Shown in pieces: positions 20,975 to 48,119 of a stretch of 64,000 nt of DNA. The notes beneath the pieces are model-generated. The model searched no databases. It had not been told where the DNA came from and was given only the letters and a program-made list of their open reading frames with translations. This DNA comes from a virus, in IMG/VR virus record IMGVR_UViG_3300022188_000006, positions 64,001 through 128,000 of that record; one strand, given 5' to 3'. The translations under genes and the position numbers were made by a program. Each line of letters starts with the position of its first letter. Position 1 is the stretch's first letter.

Positions 20975-21026
20975 TTTCTTTCCTTCCTATTCGAAGACCT
21001 TCCGATCCCGTTAACCAACGAATAAA

Positions 21027-22904: not shown

Positions 22905-22930
22905 AGTGTTACCTTTCAGTGCTGCGCCAG

Positions 22931-30466: not shown

Positions 30467-30472
30467 CCGCGA

Positions 30473-30874
30473 CTACCTCACGCTGCAATACAGAGAAGCT
30501 GTCCCTGTAAATGGCGGTGTTCCGGCTCCCCTGCAAGAGACCCTTATTCTGTCCTCGGACTCTCCGAGCTGGACGGGTATTCTGAACGTGCCGCTCTGAG
30601 TGAATCTGAAGATAAACGTCTCCGTAGTACCATCATTGTCGCTAATGGTGTCAGCGAAAAACAGATTGCTGGGCGAAGTGTCATCAAAAACAGGGCTGTA
30701 CTCTACGAGAACCTGGAGTTCGTCCTCGTTTCCTTTTGTATAGTCGATGTAGACGAACGCTTGGATAACAGCAGGTGTCAAAGCTACCCTGGAATTATCC
30801 GAAAAGGTTGTCGTCAGGTTCGTGATGTCGAAGGTCTGGTCGTAATTCTCCCCCCAGTTGCTTTTTCCAGCCAT
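30473..30874 (-). CDS. Hypothetical beta-sandwich protein
   Basis: 133 aa, beta-rich, in the fibre cluster. Confidence 0.6.
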   Translation of the reverse strand: MAGKSNWGENYDQTFDITNLTTTFSDNSRVALTPAVIQAFVYIDYTKGNEDELQVLVEYSPVFDDTSPSNLFFADTISDNDGTTETFIFRFTQSGTFRIPVQLGESEDRIRVSCRGAGTPPFTGTASLYCSVR

Positions 30875-30883
30875 GTTTGCTTC

Positions 30884-32068
30884 CTACAGTCTGCCGAGAC
30901 GATAAAGCGCCTCCGTGACATCCGCATACATCCAGGGTATCGAAAAGTATCCACAAGTATAGTTACCCGAACTATCACGACCGCTGACTAGCAGCTTGAC
31001 ATCAGCCTCGTCACCGGCACCAGAGAACCTATTTTCGAAGTCGACAACGGCCGACGGAGTATAGCACCTTTGCTCGCGCCACGTGCCGCTTACGCGACCA
31101 AACAGCGGCCCTTGAATCGTCAGCTTTGCCCAATCGAGTCCGTCATCCGAAACAGCCACTCCAATGCCCTCGTGTAGTGCGCCGGCTCCTCCGGAATAGA
31201 ACATCATCCACTTTCCGAGAGTAGTCCGGAACACACTACAAGCACCTACGTAGCTGGAATCCCACGGAACAGGATTGCCCCAGACGGTACTGCCATGGTC
31301 CAGTACCTTGTTATACAAAGAAAAGGTAACACCATCAGGGCTATAACCGAGTCCAATGGACTCAAAAGCACCGGTGGTGCCATCAAAGAACAGGACGTAG
31401 CTGTAGTCGTAGGGATTGCTACCGGAATTGCTAGCACCACTGTTGTAGATCACCGCGCAGGGACCATAGGAGCCGCGGTTCCAATCCGGATGTGTTCCTG
31501 TGACAATCGGAACAGCACCGTTTTGCAGCGGCTGATCATTACTCCAGTTAAGCAGGTCAGACGACTCAGCGGTCCTGATAGCCTGCACAGAGTATAACTG
31601 CGACGTGTCCCAGTAATAGATTCGGAAAGAAGAAGCTCCCGTTTGGACGACCTGGGAATGGTGTGCACCGGACGGCAAGCCGACAACAGGGTTACCGCCA
31701 TTCAGGCGTGTCCACGTCGTGAAGTCGTTACTACCGGAAATAATGATGCCTCCACCGGCGTCCACGTCCGAAGAATGTAGACACACGTATTTGTAAGCAG
31801 TCCCGGCGATGTCGAAGCCATCAGCGAAGTACAGAAGAGTCGGATAATATGCCCTGTCAACCGGAGGGTCGAGCACAGGATTCTGATCGTATTCTTCTGG
31901 CAAGGCTAGGACCTTCCCGCCACCAGTAACATCCCAAACGCGCTGAAACCCGCCTTGTATGCTGTCACGGAGACGCTCCATCTCGGCTACCCAGGGCGTC
32001 AAACGGCGCTGACCTCGGTTAAGCTGGATCTCCTGTGATCCTCTGTGGTAGAATTGCTGCTGCGTCAT
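30884..32068 (-). CDS. Five-bladed beta-propeller glycoside hydrolase-like protein (GH43/32/130-type fold)
   Basis: QNPVL, repeated S-x-D-x-x-x-W boxes (SNDFTTW, SSDLLNW, SPDGVTF, SDDGLDW), WDS...WMMFYSG, IG.A.S. Confidence 0.8.
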   Translation of the reverse strand: MTQQQFYHRGSQEIQLNRGQRRLTPWVAEMERLRDSIQGGFQRVWDVTGGGKVLALPEEYDQNPVLDPPVDRAYYPTLLYFADGFDIAGTAYKYVCLHSSDVDAGGGIIISGSNDFTTWTRLNGGNPVVGLPSGAHHSQVVQTGASSFRIYYWDTSQLYSVQAIRTAESSDLLNWSNDQPLQNGAVPIVTGTHPDWNRGSYGPCAVIYNSGASNSGSNPYDYSYVLFFDGTTGAFESIGLGYSPDGVTFSLYNKVLDHGSTVWGNPVPWDSSYVGACSVFRTTLGKWMMFYSGGAGALHEGIGVAVSDDGLDWAKLTIQGPLFGRVSGTWREQRCYTPSAVVDFENRFSGAGDEADVKLLVSGRDSSGNYTCGYFSIPWMYADVTEALYRLGRL

Positions 32069-32391
32069 CCGACCACCCCCTCAAAAATGGCAGCGTAAGC
32101 GGCATCCTCTGCGTCCAGCTTCGTCCGCAACCGATCACGCGGAGAGAAAAGGAACTGCTGCCCCCGGGCCACCTCTGCAAATAGGTATGTGTTATTTACG
32201 GACCTGTGCACCTTTTCCAGCACTTCTCCCGCTGGCGCCTTCAGGTCGATTCCATCCATCCAATCCTCGTCAGCGCGTCCTCGCAGCAATACCGCCTTTC
32301 CGTCCTTGACAGCCCATTCCTGGACGATCACACAATCCCGTGTGCGCGGGTTTTGCTCGTAGACGGTCATGACAACATTACCAGCGGCCAC
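32065..32391 (-). CDS. Kinase-associated small protein
   Basis: Overlaps the end of the kinase gene; similar to the C-terminal domain of the second kinase (43822-44097). Confidence 0.65.
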   Translation of the reverse strand: MAAGNVVMTVYEQNPRTRDCVIVQEWAVKDGKAVLLRGRADEDWMDGIDLKAPAGEVLEKVHRSVNNTYLFAEVARGQQFLFSPRDRLRTKLDAEDAAYAAIFEGVVG

Positions 32392-33208
32392 CTAGTTTCC
32401 TCCATGTCCGCATTTTCTTGAGTTCCGAGTGACGCTTGAGAACCCCGTCTAGCTCACGGTCGCCCATTCGTGCCTCAGTCATTGCTTCCGCAACAGCCTC
32501 TAAGTCGGCCTTCTCCAGTATCTGCCGGACATCCTCGGTTATTTCTTTGCCGACGAGTCTCCGCCCAATCACAGAAAGCATATGCGTCCTGTCATCGCCG
32601 GAGGTAAAGGCGTAACCGTTGTCTATAGCGTAAATCCGCTTCTGCGGATCCACGAGCAGATTGCTTGCATGTCGGTCAATCTGTCCGCAGATAAAGTCGA
32701 ATGCAGCACAACGATGAAACCAGGGATTTTCTGGATGCTGCCGATAATCGTATCGCCCCGACCGGCGTAACTCACTCAACAATGGCAACCTGACCCACGC
32801 CATCATAGAACCGGAACCTTCATTGTCTAGCGTTCTGCCGACAACAGGGGGGACCAGGTCGAACCCATATATCCGGTCCAGCTTATACACCAGAAGCTCT
32901 CGCTCCGAAGGGCTCACCTTCGGATCCATTGCCGACAAGTACCGCCCGGTCTCATATCTAAACTCGTGCTTCTTAAATACAGCCTGTGTACAGTCGATAA
33001 AACCCTTGCGGAACGAAGTTTTCAATCTAACTCTCAAGGGACGATGGATCCCCTTGCCGATGGGCTCAGAGTACAGCTCTTCCGCCTGGGTTAGCACCAG
33101 ACAACATTTGGCGTGGTCCAGATCGTCCAGACCCTTATCAAGATCAGCCGGCGCGAAGCCGGCCGACCTCCGCATACCGGAGAGTAGCCCACCAGTCAGC
33201 GCGTTCAT
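32378..33208 (-). CDS. PI3/4-kinase / HipA-like atypical kinase
   Basis: AVFK, RE..VY.LD...GF.LVPP, catalytic DFICGQIDRHASN, IDNG. Confidence 0.85.
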   Translation of the reverse strand: MNALTGGLLSGMRRSAGFAPADLDKGLDDLDHAKCCLVLTQAEELYSEPIGKGIHRPLRVRLKTSFRKGFIDCTQAVFKKHEFRYETGRYLSAMDPKVSPSERELLVYKLDRIYGFDLVPPVVGRTLDNEGSGSMMAWVRLPLLSELRRSGRYDYRQHPENPWFHRCAAFDFICGQIDRHASNLLVDPQKRIYAIDNGYAFTSGDDRTHMLSVIGRRLVGKEITEDVRQILEKADLEAVAEAMTEARMGDRELDGVLKRHSELKKMRTWRKLGGRW

Positions 33209-33244
33209 GCGGTTTCCAGAGATGCCGCTACACAGCAGCCGGCG

Positions 33245-33700
33245 TCATTCGACTTTGAACGTGTGCGTGTGGCCGTCTGCCTCCTCAACGAGGCCGACCA
33301 CCTTCACGTCATGCGTGTGGCCGTCGACACTGTCGGTCTTACCGTAAATGACACGCATATCTTTATCCACGAGGGCTACCACCCTGTGGCAGTGTCGGAC
33401 CCCGTCTACACCGGCGTCCTGCGTAGTAATCGCCTCGATTTTTCGTTGCCCCGCTTGCTCACGAGCAAACGGCATACTGCCCGTGGTGCATGTGTTGTCC
33501 GGCGTGCCCGGACAGTCCACTTCGTTTTCGGCTGCAGCACCTATCCGCAGTCCTTCCCCGTAGGCATTATACCTCTTGAAGAAGAGAAGCCCAGAGTCGA
33601 CAGCCACCAGCTCCCAACTAGCCCGACCTAGCTTCTCCAGCGTCGCAGTCAGGTCTCCACATTCAGACAAACTGACCGTGTAGTAGTCCCATCCAGGCAT
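33245..33700 (-). CDS. DUF4177-like domain + His-rich DGHxH repeats
   Basis: WDY...L..LG..SWELVAV...FFKR N-terminus; HCH, DGHTH, DGHTH. Confidence 0.65.
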   Translation of the reverse strand: MPGWDYYTVSLSECGDLTATLEKLGRASWELVAVDSGLLFFKRYNAYGEGLRIGAAAENEVDCPGTPDNTCTTGSMPFAREQAGQRKIEAITTQDAGVDGVRHCHRVVALVDKDMRVIYGKTDSVDGHTHDVKVVGLVEEADGHTHTFKVE

Positions 33701-33726
33701 CGCTGCAACCCCCGTTAGATGCTTGA

Positions 33727-33763
33727 GGTCAGGCTGACCGGCCGAAACCGGTCAGCACTGACC
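33727..33763 (-). promoter_or_regulatory. Stable hairpin (terminator or stabiliser)
   Basis: GCTGACCGG/CCGGTCAGC stem extended by GGTCAG/CTGACC, TTTCGG loop. Confidence 0.55.
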
Positions 33764-33769
33764 GAATCC

Positions 33770-34114
33770 TCAGACGCGAGTCGGGCGCGCCCAAGCTCCG
33801 AATTGTCCCGGCGCAACACCGACCTGACCACCGCTCCTGGCCACGGAACTGACCACCTTCGGACCGTAGGCGGTCTCGCCACGTTCCACAGCGATCACCT
33901 TGCGAGCGTCCGCGTTGTTGCCCTGGCGAGCCAGATCGGCCATCTTGTCGGCCTCCGCAGGCGGCACACCGGCAGGGCCAGCATTCGGGATATTCGAATC
34001 CACAGGCGGCTGATCGGCGGGCTTTGTCACCATCTTGCTGATTTCCCCGCGCGCTTTACGCGCCTTCGAAACGGCGCCAGTTCCACCACGAGCAATTGTC
34101 GCCTTACCCATCAT
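33770..34114 (-). CDS. Hypothetical low-complexity protein
   Basis: 114 aa, Ala/Gly/Pro-rich, multiple K|A sites. Confidence 0.6.
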   Translation of the reverse strand: MMGKATIARGGTGAVSKARKARGEISKMVTKPADQPPVDSNIPNAGPAGVPPAEADKMADLARQGNNADARKVIAVERGETAYGPKVVSSVARSGGQVGVAPGQFGAWARPTRV

Positions 34115-34455
34115 TCATCCTCCTTGCTTGACTTGACCCCTTCAAACCTGAAACCAGGACAATTTGGGGTCGGAGAGTCTGGAAATCCTCTACAAATCTG
34201 CGGCCTGTCCTCGTAGATGGTACAAACCGCTTCTCCGTTTTCCCACTTCAGAGCGGAACACCTCGCTTCGAAAATAACTTCTGCTTCCCGCTCGTTGATC
34301 TGTTTGACCGAGACACCTTCGTGCAGGGCCGCCCAGCGTAGAAAATCTTGGGCTGCTGCCATCTCTAAGTCAGTCGTGGCACCCTCCATTCCAAACTTCA
34401 GGACCACCTTCTTGCAACAGTTGCCACACCGCAAGCACTCACCGGTTCTTTCCAT
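34111..34455 (-). CDS. YkgJ-family cysteine cluster protein (CxxCxxCC)
   Basis: CLRCGNCC...C..L......CTIYEDRPQICRGFP. Confidence 0.88.
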   Translation of the reverse strand: MERTGECLRCGNCCKKVVLKFGMEGATTDLEMAAAQDFLRWAALHEGVSVKQINEREAEVIFEARCSALKWENGEAVCTIYEDRPQICRGFPDSPTPNCPGFRFEGVKSSKEDE

Positions 34456-35216
34456 TACACCACCATCGGAGACACATGCTCGGTCTCCCCGCCGGGCGTG
34501 GCCATCTCGGGAAACCGAATGATAATCGAGCTGTCCTTAACAATGTATGGATAAGGGGTCTCCTTGTCCTTCACCGGGTACGGACCCTTCCCATCGAGTT
34601 CAAGCGCGAGGACCCGCTCCTCTTCTGAGAACGGCTCGCTTTTCCGCACCATTACACCGTGCGGATAGCCGTTCTTTGTCACAAGGCACTTGCATGTGTA
34701 GCACTTAGTAACCTTGCCCTGCGGGAAAATGTCGACGACGGCACCATGGACTCCGAGCGGAACCCAGTTTAGCACTTGGACTCTATCGCCCACACGTAGG
34801 GTCCGCGGTCGCACAAAAGCAGGGGGCTCTTCCGGAACCTCACGCTCAACCCAGAGCTTGTTGGTCTTCCTAGAAATGATCTCCCCATCTTTGGCGAGAG
34901 CACGAGCCAAAGCTTTTCTGAATTTCTCAGATTCGAGTAGTTCAACCGGATAGCCAGCCTTTTCAAGGGCCGCCGCCATGATCTGACGCGCCTTCTCTTT
35001 CAGCGCGCCTTCGGTCACGGGCTGGTCTTGCGCCGACCCCTTTTGCTCCGACGCCTGATCGTCCTGCTGGTCTTCGTCCTGTTCCTGCACGTCCTTCAGG
35101 ATCGGGAACAACGGTTTGTTGAGCTTCGCAGAAAACGTCAGACCCTTACGAATCTCGGCGCCGTGCTCAATCTGACTGCTGGAAGTCCATGTTTCTCGGT
35201 CGTGGATCTCATTCAT
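34455..35216 (-). CDS. Hypothetical protein
   Basis: 253 aa, KOW/SH3-like LRVGDRVQV, many K|A/G/S sites. Confidence 0.6.
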   Translation of the reverse strand: MNEIHDRETWTSSSQIEHGAEIRKGLTFSAKLNKPLFPILKDVQEQDEDQQDDQASEQKGSAQDQPVTEGALKEKARQIMAAALEKAGYPVELLESEKFRKALARALAKDGEIISRKTNKLWVEREVPEEPPAFVRPRTLRVGDRVQVLNWVPLGVHGAVVDIFPQGKVTKCYTCKCLVTKNGYPHGVMVRKSEPFSEEERVLALELDGKGPYPVKDKETPYPYIVKDSSIIIRFPEMATPGGETEHVSPMVV

Positions 35217-35225
35217 TTTATACTC

Positions 35226-35933
35226 CTACGCGAGAAGATCGTCGAGGGCTTTCTCGAAATCTTCTAGGCACTTGCCCACGAGGCACTCACCTCTGCCACC
35301 TTGCCCAAGTCCCGAACCATCCATCCGACCGCCACCCGGACCCATACCACGACGACCTTGCAGCAACCTGGGAGGCAGGTTTCCGGATGCCGCTTCGGTT
35401 TCGCTCTCGCTCGTAGTGGTAGTCTCTTCCTCTTCTTGGTTCGTCAGCCCCTGGAAAGGATGCAAGGCGCCACCAGCAGCCATATCTGCAGTGTCCATTT
35501 TCGTCACGCCGACCACCGACAGAACACCTGGCGCAGCCCAAACAATTCGCTCGCTCCCTGGCAACAGCCGCTGGACGTCTACCCGGACAGCCATGTTATC
35601 GGAGGCGTCGATACTGTCGACCTGCAACCCGCGTTCGATGCACCACTCCTTGACCTTGGATGAGTTGGCGAACCGCTTTCTGCTGAACCACAAACTGCCA
35701 AGTTCGAAATCCGGCACCGACTTCTGGTAGCGCGTCTCATTGAGCATACCAGTCCATCGGTCATCGCTCAGCTCGGCCGCCCTTATCGCCTTAAAAGGAT
35801 TGTCGCAGTACAGGCACTTGTGCTTTGCTCCCACAATCCTCGGGCGCCAAGCTAAAATAGAATCGACGCAGCAACCGCGCACATCCTGTACGGCTTCAAT
35901 GCCGATGCGGCCATCCAGATCCAAGCCAGCCAT
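35226..35933 (-). CDS. Hypothetical protein carrying a capsid N-arm-like peptide
   Basis: Start at ATG 35933 (GGGAGG SD); CC...CLYC; contains KMDTADMAAGGALHP. Confidence 0.6.
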   Translation of the reverse strand: MAGLDLDGRIGIEAVQDVRGCCVDSILAWRPRIVGAKHKCLYCDNPFKAIRAAELSDDRWTGMLNETRYQKSVPDFELGSLWFSRKRFANSSKVKEWCIERGLQVDSIDASDNMAVRVDVQRLLPGSERIVWAAPGVLSVVGVTKMDTADMAAGGALHPFQGLTNQEEEETTTTSESETEAASGNLPPRLLQGRRGMGPGGGRMDGSGLGQGGRGECLVGKCLEDFEKALDDLLA

Positions 35934-36064
35934 GGTCTTGCCTCCCATGAAGTTGCTTGCAGGACGCGGCCATTCGCTCTATGCCGGCACCCGAAGCAGA
36001 CTTGTGTATCCCGCGCACATCGCGGTAGCAAAAGAGTCACAGCAGTATATGCTGCTACAATCCT

Positions 36065-36093
36065 AGTTTATCCCCTTTTTGATAGTGAGTCAA
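36065..36093 (-). promoter_or_regulatory. Sigma70-like promoter
   Basis: TTGACT-N17-TAAACT. Confidence 0.68.
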
Positions 36094-36103
36094 GCCTTTC
36101 GCA

Positions 36104-37987
36104 CTACACAACGATGACGTTCTGAACGTACTTCGCCGAATCAAAAGGGTTCACAACGAAATCAGGAACGTCTACAGCAACCTCGTTCAGACCATCTTCA
36201 TCGAACTTCCTAGCCATCGCGCGCCGTTGTTTCTCTGCCTTTTTTGCTTCGAGCAACCGCGTTTGCACCTCAGCAGCGGACGCCTTCTCGATGTCTGGAC
36301 CAAATTCGTCCTCGAAACGGAAATTCATCATGAGACACATGAGCGCGTCTGGTCCGTGATCCTTCTTCTTTAGGATGGCACCGGTAGTCTCGGACCTACG
36401 GTAAGCCTTCAGTTGCTCGATTAGTATTTCCAGTGCCTTGTTTATGCGTATGCGCCTGAACACGAAGTACTTCGAAACATTTTCAATGCCTATCTTCTTC
36501 CATGTCCCGAAATTTATCGGCCGCACATCAAAACCAGCGCTAGAGAGTTCCGCGTTGTTGAATGGGTGAGACGAGTCTGCCAATACGGGGAACTCGCCAA
36601 ACAGTGTCTTCCAATCGCGCAACTTTGTAGCTACATCGGAGACCAGCACGTGGTCTGTAAACTCAGCCTCATGGATATAAACACATTCCCTCGTGCGTAT
36701 CCCCAGGATCATCACCATGCTTCCCTGAGACTGAATACCCCAGTCGATACCAACCGCCGCCCTATCCACCGCACTGTCGATAAGGATAGGATCAGTAAGA
36801 GAAGCCTCAATCAGCTCAGGTGCATAGACGCAAGACGAATACGACGGGCGTTCGCAGGCAAACTCGGTCTCAAAGACGGTCGTCCCGGCATTCATCTCCT
36901 TAGCTTCTGACACCATTTTGAAGGTGGCCCAGCCGTCACTGTGGCGCGCCTTTCCGTAACACCCCTTAAATACCTCTGTCTTCTTACCATCGGGACCATC
37001 CACCAAAACCCTGTCCGTCAAATAGCACCTCTTGCAGTACTCAAGAGCTTCCGGATCATCCTCCGTCGCCTCTTCGAGACCCCTCGTGCATCGTTCCATA
37101 GTATCAAACACGTTCCAGTTGTACCGCTGAAATCCCTTCTCCCTGTAACCATCCCAATACTCTTGGAACAGGCCGTGCGGTATATGGAACGTAGAAAACA
37201 AGCACACAATTGAATCCGGCTCTGACAGCGCGCCCTGCAAAGCAGCCCGCATCGCCTTTTCGACTCTGCGGTCCTCCTGGCAAACCTCGTCCACAAAAAT
37301 TGTCCCAAAGTGCTTGCCGCGTCCTTGTTTCTCCGTCGCCGGCACACACTTCAAGAGAACACCTGTCACCAACCGGGTGACATCAGAAAGCGGATCGCCG
37401 AGCAGGAGACCGTCACGCAACCCGGGCACAGCATCCCAGAACATCTTCACGTAGTCATAAACAACTTTCGACTGTTCCCCCGAACCTGCCACATCCAGTA
37501 TTTCCCGCTTCCAGTAGATGAGGAGCAACCAGATCAGCACAGCAGCCGAAAGAGATCCACCGCCACCACGCGGCTTCCAAGTGATCGTCTTTCGAACTCG
37601 ACCAAAAAACACGTCGCCGACCCATTTGATGATCGGCGGAATGAGCTTCACATAGGTCTTTTTGCCGTCCTTAATTACGTATAAGGTTTCCCCGACAAAT
37701 GATGCAAGCCTTTCGTGTTGCCGCTTTATGTATGCTTCTTCACTTTCTTCGTATCCCAAGGGCTCGCGAACCCAGCCGTCTGTCACGTGCCAGCCTTTTT
37801 CGGCAGCCGTAACGGCGCTCATCTCTGGATCATAGACACCCTGCTTGAAGCCACGGGGAAACAGCAGATCAGGCAAACCGTAAGCACCCGGATATCCCCT
37901 TGCGAGACGATCCCTGATCTCTCGCTCAAGCAGCAGAAGCTGTCGTAGCTTCTCCTCTTTGCTTTGGCTCGCCTTACGTTTTTTCAC
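36104..37987 (-). CDS. terL: Terminase large subunit
   Basis: PRGGGGS (Walker A position), RGKH...IFVDEV (Walker B), ST coupling motif, F.TEF, nuclease GIDWG, ADSS, DHGPDAL. Confidence 0.9.
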   Translation of the reverse strand: MKKRKASQSKEEKLRQLLLLEREIRDRLARGYPGAYGLPDLLFPRGFKQGVYDPEMSAVTAAEKGWHVTDGWVREPLGYEESEEAYIKRQHERLASFVGETLYVIKDGKKTYVKLIPPIIKWVGDVFFGRVRKTITWKPRGGGGSLSAAVLIWLLLIYWKREILDVAGSGEQSKVVYDYVKMFWDAVPGLRDGLLLGDPLSDVTRLVTGVLLKCVPATEKQGRGKHFGTIFVDEVCQEDRRVEKAMRAALQGALSEPDSIVCLFSTFHIPHGLFQEYWDGYREKGFQRYNWNVFDTMERCTRGLEEATEDDPEALEYCKRCYLTDRVLVDGPDGKKTEVFKGCYGKARHSDGWATFKMVSEAKEMNAGTTVFETEFACERPSYSSCVYAPELIEASLTDPILIDSAVDRAAVGIDWGIQSQGSMVMILGIRTRECVYIHEAEFTDHVLVSDVATKLRDWKTLFGEFPVLADSSHPFNNAELSSAGFDVRPINFGTWKKIGIENVSKYFVFRRIRINKALEILIEQLKAYRRSETTGAILKKKDHGPDALMCLMMNFRFEDEFGPDIEKASAAEVQTRLLEAKKAEKQRRAMARKFDEDGLNEVAVDVPDFVVNPFDSAKYVQNVIVV

Positions 37988-38035
37988 TGTAACACCGTGG
38001 GGCCGCCGTTGCCGACGGCCCCGATCGTCTTCTTT

Positions 38036-38986
38036 CTAGCCCTTCTTGCGGCCTCGCGCAGCCATCTGCTGGAAGCGCTTCTTCCCGTACTTGGCACGAC
38101 CGAGACTGGCAGCCAAGGCAGCAGGGTTCTTCACGTCGCCACGCCGCCGCAGCTTGTCCTCCAAAGCCTCGAACCGGGCGCCTTCACCGGGAGGAGCTTT
38201 TGCCGAAGGCTCGCTCTTTCCGCCCTTCAGCGAACCGGGCTTGACCTTCCGTCCCTTACGGGTCTTCTCGATCTCGAAACCTGGGACCGACTCGTTCTCC
38301 TCGCAGAGGCTGTGCAGGATCTCATCCAGGGACTTCCCCGCGGCCGCCATCTCTTGGAACCGCTTCTTGCCCCACTTTTTCCGGCCGATCCAAGCAGCCA
38401 CGGCCTTCGGGTTCTTCACCCCGGGCTTCCCGCGAAGCTCCTCAACAAGCTCATCGAACCGCTTGCCACTGCCAAGCTTCGGCTTTTTCTTTTCCACCTT
38501 ACCGTTCAGCGACTTGATCAGATCGTCCTCAGAAAACTCGACAGAAAAGCCGGCTTTGTTGACCCGAATATCCCGCAAACCCTGGGCAAACAGACCGATT
38601 GCCATGATCGCCTTGTGCGCAGCCTTCTCGCACTCAAGAATGAGCGAACGGACGCGATCAGCATCGCTGTCCAGCTCGTTCACGCTGTCACGGAGACGCT
38701 TGCCAACAAGCTCGGCCTGCCGACGAGTCCGGTCCATCTTCACGCCGGGAAGGGTTTCTGCCAGGTCGACGGCCTGGTCGACGAGGCCTGCACAGGCCAG
38801 CACCTTTGCTGCAGCACCGCGCCAGTCTCCCTTTCCGCGAAGCCCCTTGGCCATGTCCACGGCACTTAGAGCCTCCTCAACCATTGTCAGGAGCATCTCC
38901 TTCCTGGTCTTGTTCTTGCTCACCTTGGCGAGGCTCCCAAGAAAGCCCTTCTCAAGGTTCTCGCTCATTTCGTTTCTCATCGTCAT
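38036..38986 (-). CDS. Basic protein with two ~47-aa repeats
   Basis: G-RF-L...VKNP-A-AA-[IL]GR-K[WY]GKKRFQ-MAA-G occurs twice. Confidence 0.75.
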   Translation of the reverse strand: MTMRNEMSENLEKGFLGSLAKVSKNKTRKEMLLTMVEEALSAVDMAKGLRGKGDWRGAAAKVLACAGLVDQAVDLAETLPGVKMDRTRRQAELVGKRLRDSVNELDSDADRVRSLILECEKAAHKAIMAIGLFAQGLRDIRVNKAGFSVEFSEDDLIKSLNGKVEKKKPKLGSGKRFDELVEELRGKPGVKNPKAVAAWIGRKKWGKKRFQEMAAAGKSLDEILHSLCEENESVPGFEIEKTRKGRKVKPGSLKGGKSEPSAKAPPGEGARFEALEDKLRRRGDVKNPAALAASLGRAKYGKKRFQQMAARGRKKG

Positions 38987-39013
38987 TCTCCTAGCTCTAA
39001 TGAAACATGGACC

Positions 39014-39376
39014 TTACTCGTCCGTGCCTTCCTTGTCTGCGTCCTCTCCCTGTTCACCTTCCTGCTCGGAATCACCGGCAGTCCCTTCTGGACCTTCGTT
39101 GTCCACAGCGTCATCTGCCTTGTCAGCCCCCGCAGCAGGCTCCGTAGCAGCAGCTTTCTCGGTCTTCACCAGTTCCATGCTGATCTTGCAACCAGCACAG
39201 ACCAGCTTGCCGTCTTTCGCCTCCATAGCTTCACCACACCTCGGACATGTCGCATTCTCCATTCGATTCTCCTTTTTCTTTCCGACAGCAGCACTTATAG
39301 CCCTTGTCACGGCATTAAGACCGCCGTCGAACTGACCAATACCAACAGCACCGCTAGTATCTATTGCCTTTTTCAC
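39014..39376 (-). CDS. Zn-ribbon protein with acidic tail
   Basis: CPRC...CAGC; start may be a downstream Met. Confidence 0.6.
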   Translation of the reverse strand: MKKAIDTSGAVGIGQFDGGLNAVTRAISAAVGKKKENRMENATCPRCGEAMEAKDGKLVCAGCKISMELVKTEKAAATEPAAGADKADDAVDNEGPEGTAGDSEQEGEQGEDADKEGTDE

Positions 39377-39650
39377 GCAACACCTTTCTGTTGAACCTTG
39401 CCAACTCCTTTACTACCCTGACGTTTACCGCTCTCGGCTTTGGCTCCCGAACTTTTTTCGGACTAGGATCTTTTCTCGGTTCCTTTGGCTTTGGCACAGG
39501 AACCGTCAGCTTTGGCTTACGAACCGGGACGTTTTGGTCTTGTGTTGCGGGAACAGGACCCTTCGCCCAATCGTTGCCTCCGGGGCCTGAGCTTGCATTC
39601 CTAGCCGCGTCCCTCGCTGGCCGTTTACCTCTTTCCGGATGCCTTGCCAT
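39354..39650 (-). CDS. Basic Pro/Lys-rich protein
   Basis: Probable start at ATG 39650 (MARHPERGK). Confidence 0.5.
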   Translation of the reverse strand: MARHPERGKRPARDAARNASSGPGGNDWAKGPVPATQDQNVPVRKPKLTVPVPKPKEPRKDPSPKKVREPKPRAVNVRVVKELARFNRKVLREKGNRY

Positions 39651-39795
39651 CCCTGATTTCTTTCGCTTCCTTCTTAGAAACAACACCGGTGCTCTCGGCA
39701 CCGCTGATTACAGCGCCACGAATCTTTGCGGCATTCCCAGAACGTAGGTGCAGCGACGCCAGATCTCGAAGAACCTCAGACACAATCTTGTTCAT
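39625..39795 (-). CDS. 56-aa protein (not in ORF track)
   Basis: MNKIVSEVLRDLASLHLRSGNAAKIRG...; ATGA overlap with the upstream gene; fills the gap. Confidence 0.5.
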   Translation of the reverse strand: MNKIVSEVLRDLASLHLRSGNAAKIRGAVISGAESTGVVSKKEAKEIRDGKASGKR

Positions 39796-40412
39796 GCCTT
39801 CGCCTTCAGCATTAAGTCGCGTCTCTTAGCCAAGGATACCGAAATGTCGCCAAAAATCAACGAAACGCCGAGCCAGAATGTCTTCTCAGCGTCAGTAATC
39901 GTGACCGACGGACTGGCTCTCAGACCCCTACGGCCATACTTCACCGCAAACTTTTCCGCCTTGCAAACACGCTTGTTCAGATTTTTTGTCTCGGCACGCA
40001 TCTCTCTCCAGACACTAGGCTTGAATCGTTTGCAGTTGGGATCCCGCTCGATCCTATCAAGCAGAGCTTTTACCTCTGCGATCAGCACATCGCGTTCCTT
40101 GGCAAAATGTGCACTCTTGAAACCTCCGGCACCGCCCCGGCTCAACTCCGTCAACTTCTGCAGTCGCCGTTGCATCACGGCAAGTCTTCGCTTGGCAGCA
40201 GCTTTTACATGGTCGCCCCTCGGGGATTCCTCCTCTCCGCCTTTCTTGGAAGCTGTGTCTTTCTTGGGTCCTCGATAGGGAACAATGTGTCCATTCGGAA
40301 GCTTAATGACCCGCTGTCCACCTTGCCGTGTCCAGATTTCTCCCACGCGCCGGCGGACCCATTTCTCCACCGCAATCTCTGCCAAATCTACAGCCCAGCT
40401 ATACTGTCTCAC
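39792..40412 (-). CDS. Basic hypothetical protein with VGExW module
   Basis: 206 aa; RRVGEIW...KLPNG. Confidence 0.6.
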   Translation of the reverse strand: MRQYSWAVDLAEIAVEKWVRRRVGEIWTRQGGQRVIKLPNGHIVPYRGPKKDTASKKGGEEESPRGDHVKAAAKRRLAVMQRRLQKLTELSRGGAGGFKSAHFAKERDVLIAEVKALLDRIERDPNCKRFKPSVWREMRAETKNLNKRVCKAEKFAVKYGRRGLRASPSVTITDAEKTFWLGVSLIFGDISVSLAKRRDLMLKAKA

Positions 40413-40954
40413 GACAGGATCCTCACCGTAACCATGAATGCCATCGGGCGCTTCCCGCGGCGCCTGAATGCTCGCCCCTGAATCACATACTTGTTACCTT
40501 GGCTAAATACTCCTTCGGCTTCCTCCTTGAAACCGTCTGACAAAAGCGCATCTCGCAGATCTGCGATTCTGCGACCAACATCCTCCTCTGCATCGCACAC
40601 GACCGTGATATGGTAGGTATCCCCTCTATGTGCAGAGGGGGAGAGCCGACAGCCGCCCCTCCAGCCGCCCATCTTCCGCGCGATTCTTGAGGCGAACCGT
40701 CTGATCCCGGCATCGCTTTCCTTCACCACACGCTCAATAGCAGCATTAAAGGCGAATAGTTCTTCGGTGGCCAAATCCTTCCCATAGTCATCGCAGTCTT
40801 CGCACTTTTTCACGACGCCCCAAGCCATTTTGTGGCACAAAGCGTCGTCTTTATGTCGCTCGTAGCAGCTGTTGAATACCTCCACCCACTGCCGCTGCTT
40901 CTTCTCGCTAAGGCCTCTTAGCTTGCTAGGTGGATTGTTCACGTCGTAAGGCAT
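40409..40954 (-). CDS. ChaB-family protein
   Basis: MPY....P..L..L....QRQW..VFNS.Y....D....HK.AW.VVKK; start reassigned to ATG 40954. Confidence 0.8.
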   Translation of the reverse strand: MPYDVNNPPSKLRGLSEKKQRQWVEVFNSCYERHKDDALCHKMAWGVVKKCEDCDDYGKDLATEELFAFNAAIERVVKESDAGIRRFASRIARKMGGWRGGCRLSPSAHRGDTYHITVVCDAEEDVGRRIADLRDALLSDGFKEEAEGVFSQGNKYVIQGRAFRRRGKRPMAFMVTVRILS

Positions 40955-41679
40955 GTTCCAGCCTCCCATTTCTTGAGGGTATCCTGACAAAACGCTGACA
41001 ACCCCTCTAGTGCTGATGCAATACCGTTCTCCCGCGAAATAGCGGCAACACCGTGTCCGCGAGCACGCAATTCTCCCTCCGCAGGCTTCCGCCCGATGAC
41101 ATTGCCCTTCGCATCCATAAGGTAGGTGACACCGTGTCTCGTGACCTGTGCAGCCACACGCGGCAACTTCGTCCGCGTAGGCTTTTTCTTGGGATGCTCG
41201 GGCTTTCTCTCCGGTTTCTTTTCTGGTTTCTTCTCTGACTTTGCACTCGGAGCAGGCAGATTAGCTCGCCGTTCGCGCCGCTCGAACTCCTCTTTTAGTC
41301 TCTCTGGAACTTTGATCCCGTACTTTCCGAAATCTCTCGGATATATTGGCTGCCAAGACCCACCGATCTTCATATGTGGCAATAGCCTCGCCCTCGGACC
41401 CGACCCGGTCCGATACCACTCGATTCGGCCCTCACTCGCGGGCTTCGGACGCTGGGTAGGACGGGCGCGGCCTTTCGGTTCCTCGTACACATATATCGGC
41501 TTCTTGCCGGGACGCTCGATCTTCCTCTTATATTTGTGTGGTCTCAGCCTCTGGGCAAATCCCATCACCCGGCTCACGAAACCGGCCTTCAGTAGTTCCT
41601 CGCCGACGCCGCGCGACTTCGATACGTCGAAGACGAAGTCACACAGGGCCAGCAACACATCGAATCGCGCGTCGTTCAT
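40939..41679 (-). CDS. Highly basic hypothetical protein
   Basis: HKYKRK...G...YVY module; L-x-x-F helices at both termini. Confidence 0.65.
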   Translation of the reverse strand: MNDARFDVLLALCDFVFDVSKSRGVGEELLKAGFVSRVMGFAQRLRPHKYKRKIERPGKKPIYVYEEPKGRARPTQRPKPASEGRIEWYRTGSGPRARLLPHMKIGGSWQPIYPRDFGKYGIKVPERLKEEFERRERRANLPAPSAKSEKKPEKKPERKPEHPKKKPTRTKLPRVAAQVTRHGVTYLMDAKGNVIGRKPAEGELRARGHGVAAISRENGIASALEGLSAFCQDTLKKWEAGTCLTT

Positions 41680-42518
41680 TTTCTTCTGCCGATAATCTGC
41701 GCGACACGCCGGACATCGCCCGGCGTATCAATCGAACCTGTCTCTTCAACCAGCTTCGCCAACTTCTTGAGGAAGTCTAGGTAATGATACCTTTCGAAGA
41801 GTTTGTAGCGCACGTTCTCCGGAAGAAGGTTCGGCGAGGGGTACTTTTTCAGTCCTCTCCGCGCTAGCTCTAGCTCACGCTTGAACGCTTCAAGCCTGTC
41901 GCGGTGGATGTCAGACATCTCTGCCGCCATTTCCTGCACAGCGGCATCGAGGTCCTTGATCCGCCTACGCAACTTCGCCGCAACCTCAGCACTATTCGAT
42001 ACCGAGAGAACATCCGCCAGTCGCTCAATATCGATCAGGCTGCGCCACGCCTCAGCCTTATCAGCATCAATTTGCCGAACATCACGTTTCCACTGATCAT
42101 AAACATCCAGCAGACTCACGCCGATATCGGGACTTGTCTTCAGCCACTTCTTTCGCATCAAGTCGTAAACAGCGTCGTACTTGTCGAGGTCGGCACTTTC
42201 TAGGACGAAAAAGTTGATTGGATGCTGCGTCCCGGGAGCAAGCTTACCGCTAAGCCGTGTTGCATTCTCGACAAGTGCCAGCAAGGTCTCTGGATCGACG
42301 TCCACCACAATGGACACATCAATGTCCGACTCAGGATTATATCTGAGTCCGGTAATACTCCCGACCAGGTAAGCAGCGCGAGGCTTCACACCAAGCAGGA
42401 GTTTGCGTGCCTGCTGTCGAATCGCCCCCGCGATCTCCGGTCTGAGTACGTACCTGTCCCCGCGCTTGTACCAAACAAGCGGGTCCAGTCCCGGCATCTT
42501 TTCATCTAATATGCTCAC
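41676..42518 (-). CDS. Pol-beta superfamily nucleotidyltransferase
   Basis: LVGSITG..Y...SDIDV (GS...DxD), then HPINFF, AVYDL...W. Confidence 0.82.
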   Translation of the reverse strand: MSILDEKMPGLDPLVWYKRGDRYVLRPEIAGAIRQQARKLLLGVKPRAAYLVGSITGLRYNPESDIDVSIVVDVDPETLLALVENATRLSGKLAPGTQHPINFFVLESADLDKYDAVYDLMRKKWLKTSPDIGVSLLDVYDQWKRDVRQIDADKAEAWRSLIDIERLADVLSVSNSAEVAAKLRRRIKDLDAAVQEMAAEMSDIHRDRLEAFKRELELARRGLKKYPSPNLLPENVRYKLFERYHYLDFLKKLAKLVEETGSIDTPGDVRRVAQIIGRRK

Positions 42519-42799
42519 GTCTGGGCCTTCGCTTTCTTTTCTTCTTCGAGGACTGACTCCATGACAAGGAGCGCAGAATAGTAATCCGGATACTCAGCCA
42601 AGTGATCCAACGCAATCTGAGTGGCCACGTCTCGCCTGTCCGTGTGCTCCATCTCGATCTCGATACCGATGGCCAGCTGAACCGGGTCGACATCTTGCTC
42701 GGTAACGCCCTTCTTTGCCGCCATCCCGTTTAGCAGTGGCCTAGTGTCTCCTCTGCTCGACGCCCTCTGTTCTACCGCCTTTTGGATTTTGTCAAACAT
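42515..42799 (-). CDS. DUF5661-like protein
   Basis: QL.IGIEIEMEHT....A.QIALDHL.E.PDYY..L. Confidence 0.78.
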   Translation of the reverse strand: MFDKIQKAVEQRASSRGDTRPLLNGMAAKKGVTEQDVDPVQLAIGIEIEMEHTDRRDVATQIALDHLAEYPDYYSALLVMESVLEEEKKAKAQT

Positions 42800-42811
42800 T
42801 TTGCTTTCCTG

Positions 42812-43339
42812 TCAGTTGCGCCCAAGCGGATGCTGTGCCATGTCCAGCAGATCCGGACTGTCCTCTCCTACCAAGTCGTCCAACAATCGTTTCTTCAGTG
42901 CTGTTAGTTCTTCCAAGGACGCACGCTCAAGATCTACTCCCTCTATGATGTGCCTGGTCGTCGTCTGTGTTACAGCCTTGGGAACAACGCCAGCCTCCAT
43001 AAGAAGACTGGTTCGACGATGCAGGGCCGAAAGGGCCTTGTCCAAAAACGCAGCTCGCTGATTGGCACTCGAAGCCAGCGAATACTCCGACATGGCGCAC
43101 CGGTAAATCTCATCGTATTTTTGACAGGCTTCGGCGACCTCGGCAGGTGGCTCAGCGTTCGATGTCTTCTCTGCTTCCTCTGCCTTCCACTGCTTGATCC
43201 AGTTTTCCACGGTCTGCTCTGTGCAACCTACAGCCTCGGCTATGTCGCTCTTGCGTGCACCCCTGATGTAGAGACGGATCACGCGATCCTTTAGCCGCTC
43301 CCTTTCCTGCTTTGACATAGGGCCACGTCGTCTAGCCAT
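42812..43339 (-). CDS. Putative terminase small subunit (N-terminal HTH)
   Basis: RVIRLYIRG.....IAEAVG....TV..WI followed by a helical region; upstream of terL. Confidence 0.65.
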   Translation of the reverse strand: MARRRGPMSKQERERLKDRVIRLYIRGARKSDIAEAVGCTEQTVENWIKQWKAEEAEKTSNAEPPAEVAEACQKYDEIYRCAMSEYSLASSANQRAAFLDKALSALHRRTSLLMEAGVVPKAVTQTTTRHIIEGVDLERASLEELTALKKRLLDDLVGEDSPDLLDMAQHPLGRN

Positions 43340-43343
43340 ACCG

Positions 43344-43847
43344 CTATCCTGCCATTTGCAAGGTGTCGCCTACCTGCCGAATCCGGCCGGACTTAACAAG
43401 TACCTCCACCACCTCAGGAGCAACAGGATTTCTTTTACCATCAACACGCACAAGTACCGGTTGCGTCCCCATGGCCCTGTGCACCATTGTTATCCTGGCG
43501 TCATTTTGCAGAAAGAACATGAGATGGTTCGGATTCCTTATGATTCTTCCATCTGGATAGATCGGGGATCTGGCTGTCGATAGAGTCTTTGTCCTCGGCT
43601 CAAACAGCGTTTCCTTTGACTCAGGTTCTTTTCCTGCTACAGGTTCGCTTTTGCTTCCAAGAACACCGAGAACCTTGTCCAGCGCCTGCTCCACTGCACG
43701 CTCAGCCACTGCTATGTTTAGAGCAGGCGCAATTCTAGTCTTTTGCTCCGCAGGTCCTTTGTCCGCAATGACCGCGGTCCCGGCAGCACGAAGATTTTCT
43801 CCGTCCCAGACAAAATTCGTCTCATTCTGAACCCGGCGCATTGGCAT
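43344..43847 (-). CDS. Hypothetical protein
   Basis: In operon; start uncertain. Confidence 0.5.
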   Translation of the reverse strand: MPMRRVQNETNFVWDGENLRAAGTAVIADKGPAEQKTRIAPALNIAVAERAVEQALDKVLGVLGSKSEPVAGKEPESKETLFEPRTKTLSTARSPIYPDGRIIRNPNHLMFFLQNDARITMVHRAMGTQPVLVRVDGKRNPVAPEVVEVLVKSGRIRQVGDTLQMAG

Positions 43848-45705
43848 TCGTCCGAGGAACAATTCTGACCATCGAACCACAAAAACTCAAGGGCAGATCC
43901 TGCACAAACTTCTCTGGGGTGTTCGTCGTAATTCGCTCGCCCAGGGGTCCCAGGTAACCGCCCATTACGTACTCCACAAGCGGATTTTCCTCGCCGCTGA
44001 GCACCACAACCTTGTCACCCTTTAGGGCGATCTCCCCGACAAGCTTTTGGTCTTTTCCAGCACCGGTGTAGACCTGCATAATCTCAGCGTTCTCAGACTT
44101 CAATATGAAGTCCTCTAGTTGGCGCAGAGCCATCGCAACAGTAGCCATCTCTGCCGCGTGTGGTTTCGGTTTAGGTGGCTTAGGTGTCTGGAGAGACCTT
44201 GCTCCCATGGCAAGCTCTACCATGTTCAACGTGCGAGGTAACCTGCCTTTCTCCTTTATTCGCCTAAGACGCGCAATGACACCGTTGGCTTCCTTACCTA
44301 GGCCCCATTTTTCCAAGGTTTTCTTTAGTTGTCCCTCGTCTACTTTTTGCAGCTGCGAGACGATCCGCTTGTCTATCTTCCCGCCGTTGTACTCATGGGA
44401 AAGCCAGTGAGGCACAGACGTAAAACCGTGAAAATCGCCTCGTTCATCACTGATCGGGAAGTTGAACCCATTGTCGATCGCGAATGCTTGCTTTCGGTCA
44501 GCACTGACCAAGTAATTCCCGAAGTGCCTGTCTGTGGCCCCTGTAAGGTAGTCAAAGACGGCCATTTTTTCCACGGAAAACCTGAAATCAGGATCGTTTT
44601 CGAAGTGCATCTGCGTCTTCGCCCGTGAAAAGTCACTCCCGCTCATAGCCCCTTCGACAAAATGCTGCCTAGAAGCAGAAGCCTCCGGATTCAGTGCAGC
44701 CTCTTGCAGTTCCTTCAAGGCTTCTTTTGAGAGCTTATTTTCCTTGTAAGCAGCCTGGAGTTCTGGGTGCATCAGAACCTGCTTGACAACCCTTGCTCTA
44801 TCCTCGGCCGCTACCTGCGTCTTTGTCTTTACTGTTGGCGGGACAATGCCGAAACCCAGCAACCTGTCCACCTCAAAAGCCGCCGCTTCGCGCGCCCCCA
44901 CCGACACTTTTTCGTTGAGAATACCACGCCGCATGAAACTAATCGGTGGACCAAGTCCATCCGGCTTTGTTACGCTCTTGCTGCCATCAGGTGCCTGATC
45001 GAAGTAAACCAGTGTTCGGCTGTCAATGCCTGCTTGCTCCCGTTTCACCGGGTCAGAGCGCAGAGCTTTTTCTACTTGCTCTAGGTGTCCTTCCCAAGGA
45101 GCTGACGAGAGTGCACCCTTCTTGTAAACAAAATCTCCCCATCCCGTCTCTTCGTCGTGCTTGGCCGGACCGGCCTCCCTCTCATCCAGCTTGTCGAGTT
45201 TTTCTGCTATCTCCCGCAATATGCCGTAAGCTTTCTGGATCTGCTCGGCATCCCCTTTCTTGAATCCATCACGCAAAAGCTGAGCAAACTCCTTCGCCCG
45301 TGTGCTAATCTGTTCCAGGACCTTCTTCTGATGCTCAGTAGTAGCCTTGGTTTTCATTTCGCGGAACCGCTCACCGAACTTCTTCATTAGTTCGGCAGAC
45401 TTCCGCTTCAGGTCCGGTGTTGCCTGCCTCGACGATCTCAACTGTCGGACAACGCTCTCGACCTCCTGGGCCAGCTTCGATGTCTTCGGGGACGGCCCTG
45501 CCACGGTCTCAGTCTTTGCGCCCTTGGGCGGCGTGTCCGAATACTCATAGGTACCATCGGGCAATTTACGCCGCCAGAGATGGCGCTTCCTGCCCGTGCG
45601 TCCCTCTGGGTCTGGGGGCTCCCAATCACCGACCTTCGCTTTCAATAGCAGGCTAAACTGCGTCAGCGATTCAACGATGGCTTCCCTGGAAAGATCCGCG
45701 ATCAC
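43822..45705 (-). CDS. Multidomain PI3/4-kinase / HipA-like kinase with fused C-terminal partner domain
   Basis: TKP, REAAAFEVD..LGF..VPPT, DYLTGATDRHFGN, IDNG; N-terminal leader and helical region; 91-aa domain after LK|S. Confidence 0.85.
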   Translation of the reverse strand: MIADLSREAIVESLTQFSLLLKAKVGDWEPPDPEGRTGRKRHLWRRKLPDGTYEYSDTPPKGAKTETVAGPSPKTSKLAQEVESVVRQLRSSRQATPDLKRKSAELMKKFGERFREMKTKATTEHQKKVLEQISTRAKEFAQLLRDGFKKGDAEQIQKAYGILREIAEKLDKLDEREAGPAKHDEETGWGDFVYKKGALSSAPWEGHLEQVEKALRSDPVKREQAGIDSRTLVYFDQAPDGSKSVTKPDGLGPPISFMRRGILNEKVSVGAREAAAFEVDRLLGFGIVPPTVKTKTQVAAEDRARVVKQVLMHPELQAAYKENKLSKEALKELQEAALNPEASASRQHFVEGAMSGSDFSRAKTQMHFENDPDFRFSVEKMAVFDYLTGATDRHFGNYLVSADRKQAFAIDNGFNFPISDERGDFHGFTSVPHWLSHEYNGGKIDKRIVSQLQKVDEGQLKKTLEKWGLGKEANGVIARLRRIKEKGRLPRTLNMVELAMGARSLQTPKPPKPKPHAAEMATVAMALRQLEDFILKSENAEIMQVYTGAGKDQKLVGEIALKGDKVVVLSGEENPLVEYVMGGYLGPLGERITTNTPEKFVQDLPLSFCGSMVRIVPRTNANAPGSE

Positions 45706-45920
45706 TAGGCGCTAACCTCCCTAACAGCCCCGTCTTCAACAGGAACGACAGGGAAACCAAGAAACTCCTCCGGCATAATAAGAGGTTCGCGCTCAAGAAT
45801 CGGAACGAGTACCGTCCGGCCGTCCGCGCCTTTCCCTACACCAACAGACCGGGCTACCTTTACCTCTCTGTTTATGCGCTGGAGCAGTTTCTGTGCGGCA
45901 ACACGTTCTTCGTTGGTCAT
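45705..45920 (-). CDS. Small hypothetical protein
   Basis: 71 aa, SVGVG...P..F.G.PV. Confidence 0.6.
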   Translation of the reverse strand: MTNEERVAAQKLLQRINREVKVARSVGVGKGADGRTVLVPILEREPLIMPEEFLGFPVVPVEDGAVREVSA

Positions 45921-45921
45921 T

Positions 45922-47115: not shown

Positions 47116-47126
47116 CTGCCGCTCCT

Positions 47127-47339
47127 TTACGAACAAAGAGAATGAATGATCTCCTCCGTTCTTATCCTGCGTATCACAATCTGCTTTCCAGCCCAGAGAC
47201 TGGGTAAAGCTTCTCCGACAGGCTCCAACGCACCCGTGACCCACACGTACCACTTATTTGGGCGTTCTTCAACGAATACTACGCCCGTCGTGGCACTGAG
47301 GGCCAGTTTATACAGATCCGTAGCGACCTTACTGTTCAT
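47127..47339 (-). CDS. Small hypothetical protein
   Basis: About 70 aa, overlaps the end of the SOD gene. Confidence 0.5.
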   Translation of the reverse strand: MNSKVATDLYKLALSATTGVVFVEERPNKWYVWVTGALEPVGEALPSLWAGKQIVIRRIRTEEIIHSLCS

Positions 47340-48048: not shown

Positions 48049-48119
48049 GCTCTCCTCCCATACACCGCCGGCAGACACCGCCTAGCAGTATCAACCGAAG
48101 CAAACGCACTGTTATTTTA

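Follow-up and report, generated by a model that had tools for sequence, protein, structure and literature searches.

A conserved partner domain fused to, or encoded beside, paralogous kinases of a 156-kb phage

Two atypical kinases, K1 and K2, are encoded in a 64,000-nucleotide (nt) stretch of viral DNA, hereafter the window, which corresponds to bases 64001-128000 of the IMG/VR record IMGVR_UViG_3300022188_000006 (156,275 base pairs (bp), with an estimated completeness of 89%). The locus raises the question of whether both kinases are paired with the same small partner domain, encoded as a separate gene behind K1 and as the C-terminal tail of K2, and of what such a partner might do to the kinase. 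A first-pass annotation of the window had proposed this pairing from an alignment, made by eye, between the K2 tail and P0002, an open reading frame (ORF) of 108 amino acids (aa) overlapping the end of K1. The concept of a kinase and partner that may be fused or split stands, through genes other than P0002; P0002 itself did not hold up as the split copy. The paralogy of the kinases, the domain family and its distribution as both fused and separate copies are demonstrated below, and we read the region, with rather more confidence than doubt, as encoding two of six paralogous phage kinases, the tail of K2 being a lid-type partner that gates the kinase in cis or in trans.

K1, K2 and the kinase family

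Both genes lie on the minus strand, which carries nearly all of the genes of the virus record. K1 (32378-33208) is a minimal atypical kinase of 276 aa, resembling PI4K-II, SCO1664 and HipA, with a catalytic loop DRHASN at 32660-32677 and an IDNG motif at 32615-32626; it has neither an N-terminal leader nor a hairpin. K2 (43822-45705) is 627 aa long and composed of a leader, a hairpin, a helical region, a kinase core, a linker and the C-terminal partner domain, all of the following positions again being on the minus strand. Residues 1-60 (45526-45705) include an L-x-x-F...K[AQ] motif (SLTQFSLLLKA, 45637-45669) and a Trp/Gly/Tyr hairpin motif. The core spans residues 215-495 (44221-45063), with the catalytic Lys247 in the 44962-44976 region, DRHFGN at 44515-44532 and IDNG at 44467-44478. 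The linker (residues 496-535; 44101-44220) comprises a Pro/Lys-rich stretch followed by a predicted helix ending in the conserved LEDFILK motif (44095-44118 with S537 included), and the partner domain, an alpha/beta unit of around 85 aa, occupies residues 536-622 (43840-44100).

As the first-pass annotation had it, the DRHxxN and IDNG motifs are present and intact in both kinases, which are paralogous (BLASTP E-value 5e-12). In the Pfam PI3_PI4_kinase family (PF00454; gathering cut-off 27.1 bits), K2 scores 43.4 bits, KE 40.0, KD 29.0 and KB 27.8, while K1, at 25.9 bits, is slightly under the cut-off yet is a clear paralogue. Residues D392, H394, N397, D411 and K247 of K2 are invariant in an alignment of eight sequences, and invariant or nearly so in one of 60. 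The virus record has six such kinases: K1, K2 and four more in tandem outside the window (503, 519, 497 and 487 aa; loci L002-L005, G000:C1:26747-33777, which is -37253 to -30223 in window numbering). In three of these four, DRH is replaced by DGH, and in two IDNG is replaced by IDHG. The five long kinases begin with an L-x-x-F...h-K-[AQ] motif, followed by a hairpin-like G-Y-R-E-G-T-x-R-R-W...H-I-K-L-x-G-E-W-x-P-Y sequence.

A profile of eight of the kinases retrieved 7235 proteins at E-values of at most 1e-3 from 1.84 billion. The closest solved relatives of the kinase core are PI4K2B (E-value 9e-9) and FAM20A (1.6e-7), and the nearest NCBIfam model is TIGR03843, the SCO1664 family (1e-10 to 1e-14), with scores of 39.8-52 bits that are far under the curated cut-off of 172.4 and mark the phage proteins as related non-members. 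Judged by its sequence, the core is closest to the type II PI4-kinases, FAM20 and the SCO1664 family, with HipA-like D-x-H-x-x-N and I-D-N-G motifs. Orthologues of K1 have 47% (P0034) and 43% (P0048) identity, and full-length orthologues of K2 36% (P0004) and 29% (P0005).

The same kinase family also occurs in very large proteins (P0100, P0011 and P0028). It forms the C-terminus of the 3589-aa P0100 (L015:3001-13770), which has a WXG100-like N-terminal domain and the layout of a secreted polymorphic toxin; neither of the two genes downstream of P0100 encodes the partner domain. It is repeated four times in tandem in a protein of 3184 aa, and shares another, of 2892 aa, with GDPD and alpha/beta-hydrolase domains.

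A partner domain fused to or beside the kinases

The tail of K2, approximately 87 residues from around K536/S537, is a conserved domain with invariant Gly, Phe and Leu positions; its start agrees with the boundary proposed in the first-pass annotation, immediately after LEDFILK|S. It is fused to the C-terminus of a kinase in six proteins, namely K2, P0004, P0005, P0012, P0013 and P0053, the tails of the last three having been found by exhaustive search and matching the hidden Markov model (HMM) of the family with E-values of 1e-21 to 1e-28; members score between 1e-20 and 1e-33 (family alignment A8).

Separate copies are also found. Three free genes, s91, s108b and s119 (91, 108 and 119 aa), lie at 29823-32301 of the virus record, amid the four tandem kinases, which themselves have no such domain. 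They align with the K2-tail family over 79 colinear columns (hhalign probability 67%, E-value 5e-5), and an HMM of the three, run against 153 proteins, hits P0053 (8.7e-4) and P0012 (3e-3) precisely at their C-terminal domains. In other phage contigs, an 82-aa gene for the domain directly follows the kinase P0015 (L014; E-value 3e-25), and one of 116 aa directly follows the kinase P0017 on a 225-kb contig (L018/L019; 1e-20). The contigs of the kinases P0010 and P0016 have genes of 84 aa and 81 aa right behind the kinase, which are candidate copies by size and place.

A further arrangement is found behind an orthologue of K1 with 47% identity, the end of which is overlapped by a gene encoding a HAD-type phosphatase followed by the domain (P0154; L010:991-1605). 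The domain part of P0154 matches the family with an hhalign probability of 92.6% (E-value 4.5e-7), and the HAD part is confirmed by NCBIfam and has intact DxDGV and VDDR motifs. Behind a second K1 orthologue, the gene at L011:967-1227 starts like P0154, with HAD sequence, and ends at the edge of the contig, while the genes following the K1 orthologues of L012 and L013 are unrelated and appear to be structural. No HAD gene was found in the genome of this virus. At the end of the K2-type kinase P0014, the first strands of the domain are apparently present and the remainder is in another frame (L016:2961-3056 and L017:2084-2215; HMM positions 32-71, E-value 1e-7) in two independent contigs, one from JGI and one from ENA; this frame change inside the domain is either real or a shared assembly error.

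In every readable locus, the domain is attached to, or beside, a kinase of this family. The domain evolves quickly, such that BLAST misses the K2 orthologues in the tail; it has no family in Pfam, PHROG, NCBIfam or PADLOC, and its profile finds chance-level matches alone among the sequences of the PDB (for instance gyrase A, E-value 0.055). Conserved and mobile, the tail of K2 is a partner domain of this kinase family. Among predicted viral structures in BFVD, the best shape matches to the domain are A0A6J5MYX9 and A0A6J5S222, unnamed proteins of 115-145 aa from uncultured Caudovirales (probability 0.99-1.00, template modelling (TM) score approximately 0.5, E-value 0.01-0.03), which may be further free copies of it.

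Predicted docking and alternative readings

An AlphaFold model of the domain, made with 10 sequences, has a mean local confidence (pLDDT) of 88.5 and a global one (pTM) of 0.78, with the order three strands, helix, short hairpin, helix, strand. Foldseek found no solved structure matching this model at an E-value of at most 0.001. A structure search against representatives gave a best Z of 3.5, the nearest chains, weakly similar, being those of HipS (7vkb_B and 7ab3_B). Searching the ESM Atlas by shape, whether the query was our model or the Atlas's own, turned up clusters of Couple_hipA at TM scores of 0.40-0.44, which made up four of ten rows in one search and two of ten in the other. These values are weak, and the Hip chains should not be counted as independent matches. 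With HipS and the N-terminal lid of HipA as these weak neighbours of the modelled fold, a HipS-like domain is a good lead, with about an even chance of being correct.

The full-length model of K2, based on three sequences, was too poor for use (pLDDT 55), also for judging the Gly-rich loop, which in HipA-family kinases, phosphorylating an aminoacyl-tRNA synthetase, carries an autophosphorylated Ser. When the core and the domain of K2 were predicted as a complex, as the first-pass annotation had suggested for each kinase and its partner, three runs gave ipSAE values of 0.83, 0.61 and 0.01; the median of 0.61 compares with 0.01 for the best control, all controls lying between 0.00 and 0.01. The alignments held 60 sequences for the core and 11 for the domain. 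In calibration, 58 of 80 solved complexes attained the ipSAE mark, as did 2 of 110 mismatched pairs; these counts apply here only roughly, because the prediction used our own alignments. The runs share at least 39% of contacts, and the partner has a pLDDT of at least 57. On the kinase side, the contacts involve chain residue 33 (K247), residues 177-185, which include the catalytic loop DRHFGN, and residues 196-197, with the metal-binding Asp of IDNG; on the domain side, they involve the invariant Gly-rich loop and an F...L...G-S segment. As a prediction, this supports binding of the domain over the active site of K2.

The mechanism that we favour is one in which the domain would sit on the kinase core as a lid above the ATP-binding and catalytic cleft, its Gly-rich loop and F-x-x-x-L...G-S segment touching the catalytic Lys, the catalytic loop and the metal-binding Asp. 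The lid would shut the kinase down or gate its activity, acting in cis in K2 and in trans where the copy is free, and the domain fused to a HAD phosphatase might be a double antagonist of a K1-type kinase. The suggestion that the small domain is an inhibitor or a cofactor is the best reading for the tail of K2, because the domain co-occurs with the kinases both fused and separate, is predicted to bind the cleft and has a weak likeness in fold to HipS and the first N-terminal part of HipA; the same suggestion had been made for P0002, a doubtful member of the family. The inhibitory direction of the effect, the homology to HipS and the trigger for release are inferred.

The kinase core of HipA is covered by a lid, an N-terminal subdomain of approximately 100 residues. 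In HipBST, found in Escherichia coli O127:H6 and as Lpg2368-2370 in Legionella pneumophila, this piece is a separate alpha/beta protein, HipS, which binds the minimal kinase HipT at its ATP/P-loop side and neutralises it by blocking the binding of ATP (PMC9325769, PMC10627512, PMC6581861); nucleotide binding is lost in the HipT-HipS complex. The phage arrangement is similar in that a small alpha/beta partner, predicted to lie at the ATP-binding and catalytic side, is encoded beside or fused with a minimal kinase core without a lid of its own, as expected of a HipS-type partner. It differs in its core, which resembles PI4K-II, FAM20 and SCO1664 and does not match HipA_C, in having no Couple_hipA sequence match and no HipB-type helix-turn-helix (HTH) gene, in the position of the partner, which is downstream or C-terminally fused, and in its setting, a 156-kb phage with six kinase copies rather than a three-gene bacterial operon.

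Closer parallels in layout are found among other Hip systems. HipL carries the partner as a C-terminal fusion to the core, hipJS encodes it separately behind the kinase (Gerdes, Baerentsen, Brodersen 2021, PMC8262856), and in hipIN, which corresponds to the candidate defence system PDC-M03 of PADLOC, the downstream gene encodes HipN, a HipS-like domain with HIRAN (PMC8262856). K2 thus resembles HipL, the loci L014 and L018 resemble hipJS, and the fusion of HAD and partner in L010 resembles hipIN, although the second domain is there a phosphatase rather than HIRAN and the sequence families differ. The kinases match PDC-M03A over only around 25 residues surrounding the catalytic loop (E-values 6e-4 to 3e-3), no match was obtained with the partner proteins, and the loci do not qualify as this system. 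The kinase core is alike in sequence to PI4K-II, FAM20 and SCO1664 (TIGR03843), from which the phage kinases differ by an added N-terminal module of leader and hairpin. We know of no PI4K-II, FAM20 or SCO1664 member with this partner domain, and the literature search brought up no publication on PI4K-like kinases of phages with a partner of this kind. The design of a kinase with a lid is known from the Hip family; what is new here is its combination with another branch of kinases, an unnamed domain and a phage setting.

A number of observations weigh against the partner being a gating lid. The Pfam family Couple_hipA (PF13657) matches none of six domain sequences at an E-value of at most 1, and in the six frames of the genome it has no match at an E-value of at most 10, a search in which control genomes did match. 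HipA_C (PF07804; cut-off 30.5 bits) has no match to K1 or K2, and reaches only 12.5-13.6 bits (E-values 0.05-0.11) in KB and KE. One of the three complex runs ended at an ipSAE of 0.01, and the score is itself the confidence of a model in predictions from our own alignments. HipA is an active toxin although it contains the same lid, so binding need not mean inhibition. Finally, the fusion to a HAD phosphatase would also suit a shared targeting or substrate-binding module. The domain might then be a targeting or substrate-recognition module, and not a regulator of the kinase, that brings the kinase and the phosphatase to a common target or place, with the free copies acting as competitors or adaptors, a reading that we consider improbable. 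The occurrence of this fusion in the gene after a K1 orthologue is what would be expected of such a module, as are the free copies lying between four kinases that have no domain, and the domain has no strong match to any known fold. Against this, the domain accompanies a kinase of this family wherever a locus can be read, the residues that are invariant in it map to the predicted contact surface with the kinase cleft, for which the controls gave essentially nothing, and HipN shows by example that fusion to a second domain need not stop a HipS-like domain from being the partner of a kinase (PMC8262856).

The separate question of whether K1 has a partner turns on P0002 (32065-32391, minus strand). 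This ORF has a GTG start, overlaps the end of K1 by 14 nt and is preceded, 6 nt upstream and inside the end of K1, by a GGAGGA Shine-Dalgarno sequence (32398-32403, minus strand), so that it looks like a real, separately translated gene that is translationally coupled to K1. A frameshift fusion of K1 and P0002 was considered and excluded, as P0002 has its own strong ribosome-binding site. A search of an index of 5.8 billion proteins found P0002 itself and no relatives, and therefore no profile of it could be built; language-model and shape neighbours yielded nothing usable, and no Couple_hipA cluster is among the ESM Atlas neighbours of its model. The register proposed by eye is indeed the best local alignment of P0002 with the K2 tail (Smith-Waterman score 37), with a p-value of around 0.01 in 2000 shuffles, while BLASTP does not report the match and at the DNA level there is no similarity in register. 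With hhalign, the E-value worsens from 0.0038 to 0.059 and 0.1 as the family profile deepens from 3 to 6 and 12 sequences, as expected of a chance match to residues specific to K2, and the match is confined to the first 35 or so residues (34-38 columns). In the second half of P0002, the invariant Gly, Phe, Leu and Gly columns of the family are out of register. The combined family HMM gives P0002 2.5 bits (E-value 1.4-1.5, shuffle p-value 0.02), which ranks it eighth of 184 ORFs in the genome. The similarity is not confirmed to exceed chance and is no evidence of homology, as it weakens with every deepening of the profile, spans approximately 35 residues and concerns a pair picked by eye from many possible ones.

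By its position after K1, P0002 is a candidate partner; it may just as well be an unrelated small protein. That it is nonetheless a true, highly diverged member and the cognate partner of K1 is unlikely, if the most credible of the alternatives weighed here. It would account for the translational coupling directly behind K1, for the partner-domain fusion, or the HAD start of one, at the same position in two of four K1 orthologues, and for the agreement of all methods on one register over the first three predicted strands; a domain that changes as fast as this one could also lose its resemblance. The trend of the hhalign E-values, the misfit of the second half to the invariant spacing, the HMM result, the Atlas neighbours and the lack of relatives all speak against it.

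The first-pass annotation had also suggested, by analogy with MuF head proteins, that the capsid carries the fused form as an auto-inhibited pro-toxin, from which the prohead protease removes the inhibitor by cutting at ILK|S, arming the kinase for the next host. We regard this as very improbable, with no support for an activation of K2 by that protease in the capsid. In common with MuF-type toxins, K2 is a phage-encoded enzyme with toxin potential, a role made plausible by the related kinase domain that ends the giant WXG100-type protein. Also in keeping with this model are the start of the domain at K536/S537, the conserved L-[DE]-x-[LF]-x-h-h-K stretch ahead of it in all six fused proteins, which is the one hint of cleavage at ILK|S, the similar L-x-x-F...K[AQ] motif at the N-terminus of the five long kinases, and the 453-aa capsid protein (19613-20974), which begins MDQNELLVEK|SIQ and the gene of which is preceded by an acid-rich protease or scaffold-like candidate of 625 aa with a very long Glu-rich stretch (21027-22904). 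However, K2 differs from those toxins: neither Pfam nor PHROGs finds Phage_Mu_F in it, it has no other head-protein domain, and it lies approximately 19 kb from the cluster of portal, protease and capsid genes, with conserved neighbours that in a relative include superoxide dismutase, glutaredoxin and ribonucleotide reductase. Free-standing copies of the domain need no protease, and the leader-like motif, in a looser form, is weakly enriched in other ORFs, with three observed against 0.6 expected and a maximum in shuffles of also three. It is found at the N-termini of the superoxide dismutase (47329-48078) and of a 246-aa protein (40939-41679). Hardly any more probable is a composite in which multi-copy kinases have swappable HipS-like lids, on kinase or phosphatase and unlike known HipS in sequence, the lid of K2-type proteins is released by proteolysis at L-x-x-h-h-K, possibly by the prohead protease, and the armed kinase is delivered with the DNA to poison or commandeer the next host.

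Genome setting and significance

K2 lies between the gene for the Fe/Mn superoxide dismutase and that for an HTH protein resembling a small terminase subunit (42812-43339). Elsewhere in the window are genes for the large terminase (36104-37987), a collagen-like tail fibre (28184-30466) and a head module (19613-24802) that includes a candidate portal gene of 623 aa. PHROGs has no family for K1, K2, P0002 or most of their neighbours. Megablast of 16 kb of the window against the phages of GenBank gave no matches, and pattern scans of IMG/VR with K2, P0002 and the four tandem kinases found no close relative.

The 71-aa gene directly upstream of K2 (45705-45920, minus strand), the stop codon of which overlaps the start of K2, is a conserved companion of K2-type kinases: copies with 34-37% identity lie directly upstream of the kinase at L008:9636-9848 and L016:990-1205. 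It has no family match, and may be a third component of the kinase module. The 22-kb Logan contig of L008, a distant relative, has a gene order in common with 43344-48078 of the window, consisting of superoxide dismutase, a small gene, a gene of approximately 416-443 aa, one of approximately 70 aa, the kinase, and genes of approximately 200 aa and 170 aa. Also nearby in this relative are genes for a NIF-type phosphatase and for two intein-bearing proteins, a ribonucleotide reductase and an AAA protein.

The evidence for the kinase-lid design comes from other genes and not from the pair of P0002 and the K2 tail. In the Hip family, the precedent is a small piece, HipS, that switches off a growth-arresting kinase, and the same design would be present here in a different kinase branch; in one relative, the partner domain of the kinase is joined to a phosphatase, beside the kinase gene (L010). 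If the predicted docking is true, the domain would be a ready-made inhibitor of, or handle on, more than 7000 uncharacterised kinases. It would also deserve annotation as a new domain family, and would offer a testable case of how a phage restrains an enzyme that may be toxic up to the moment of its use.

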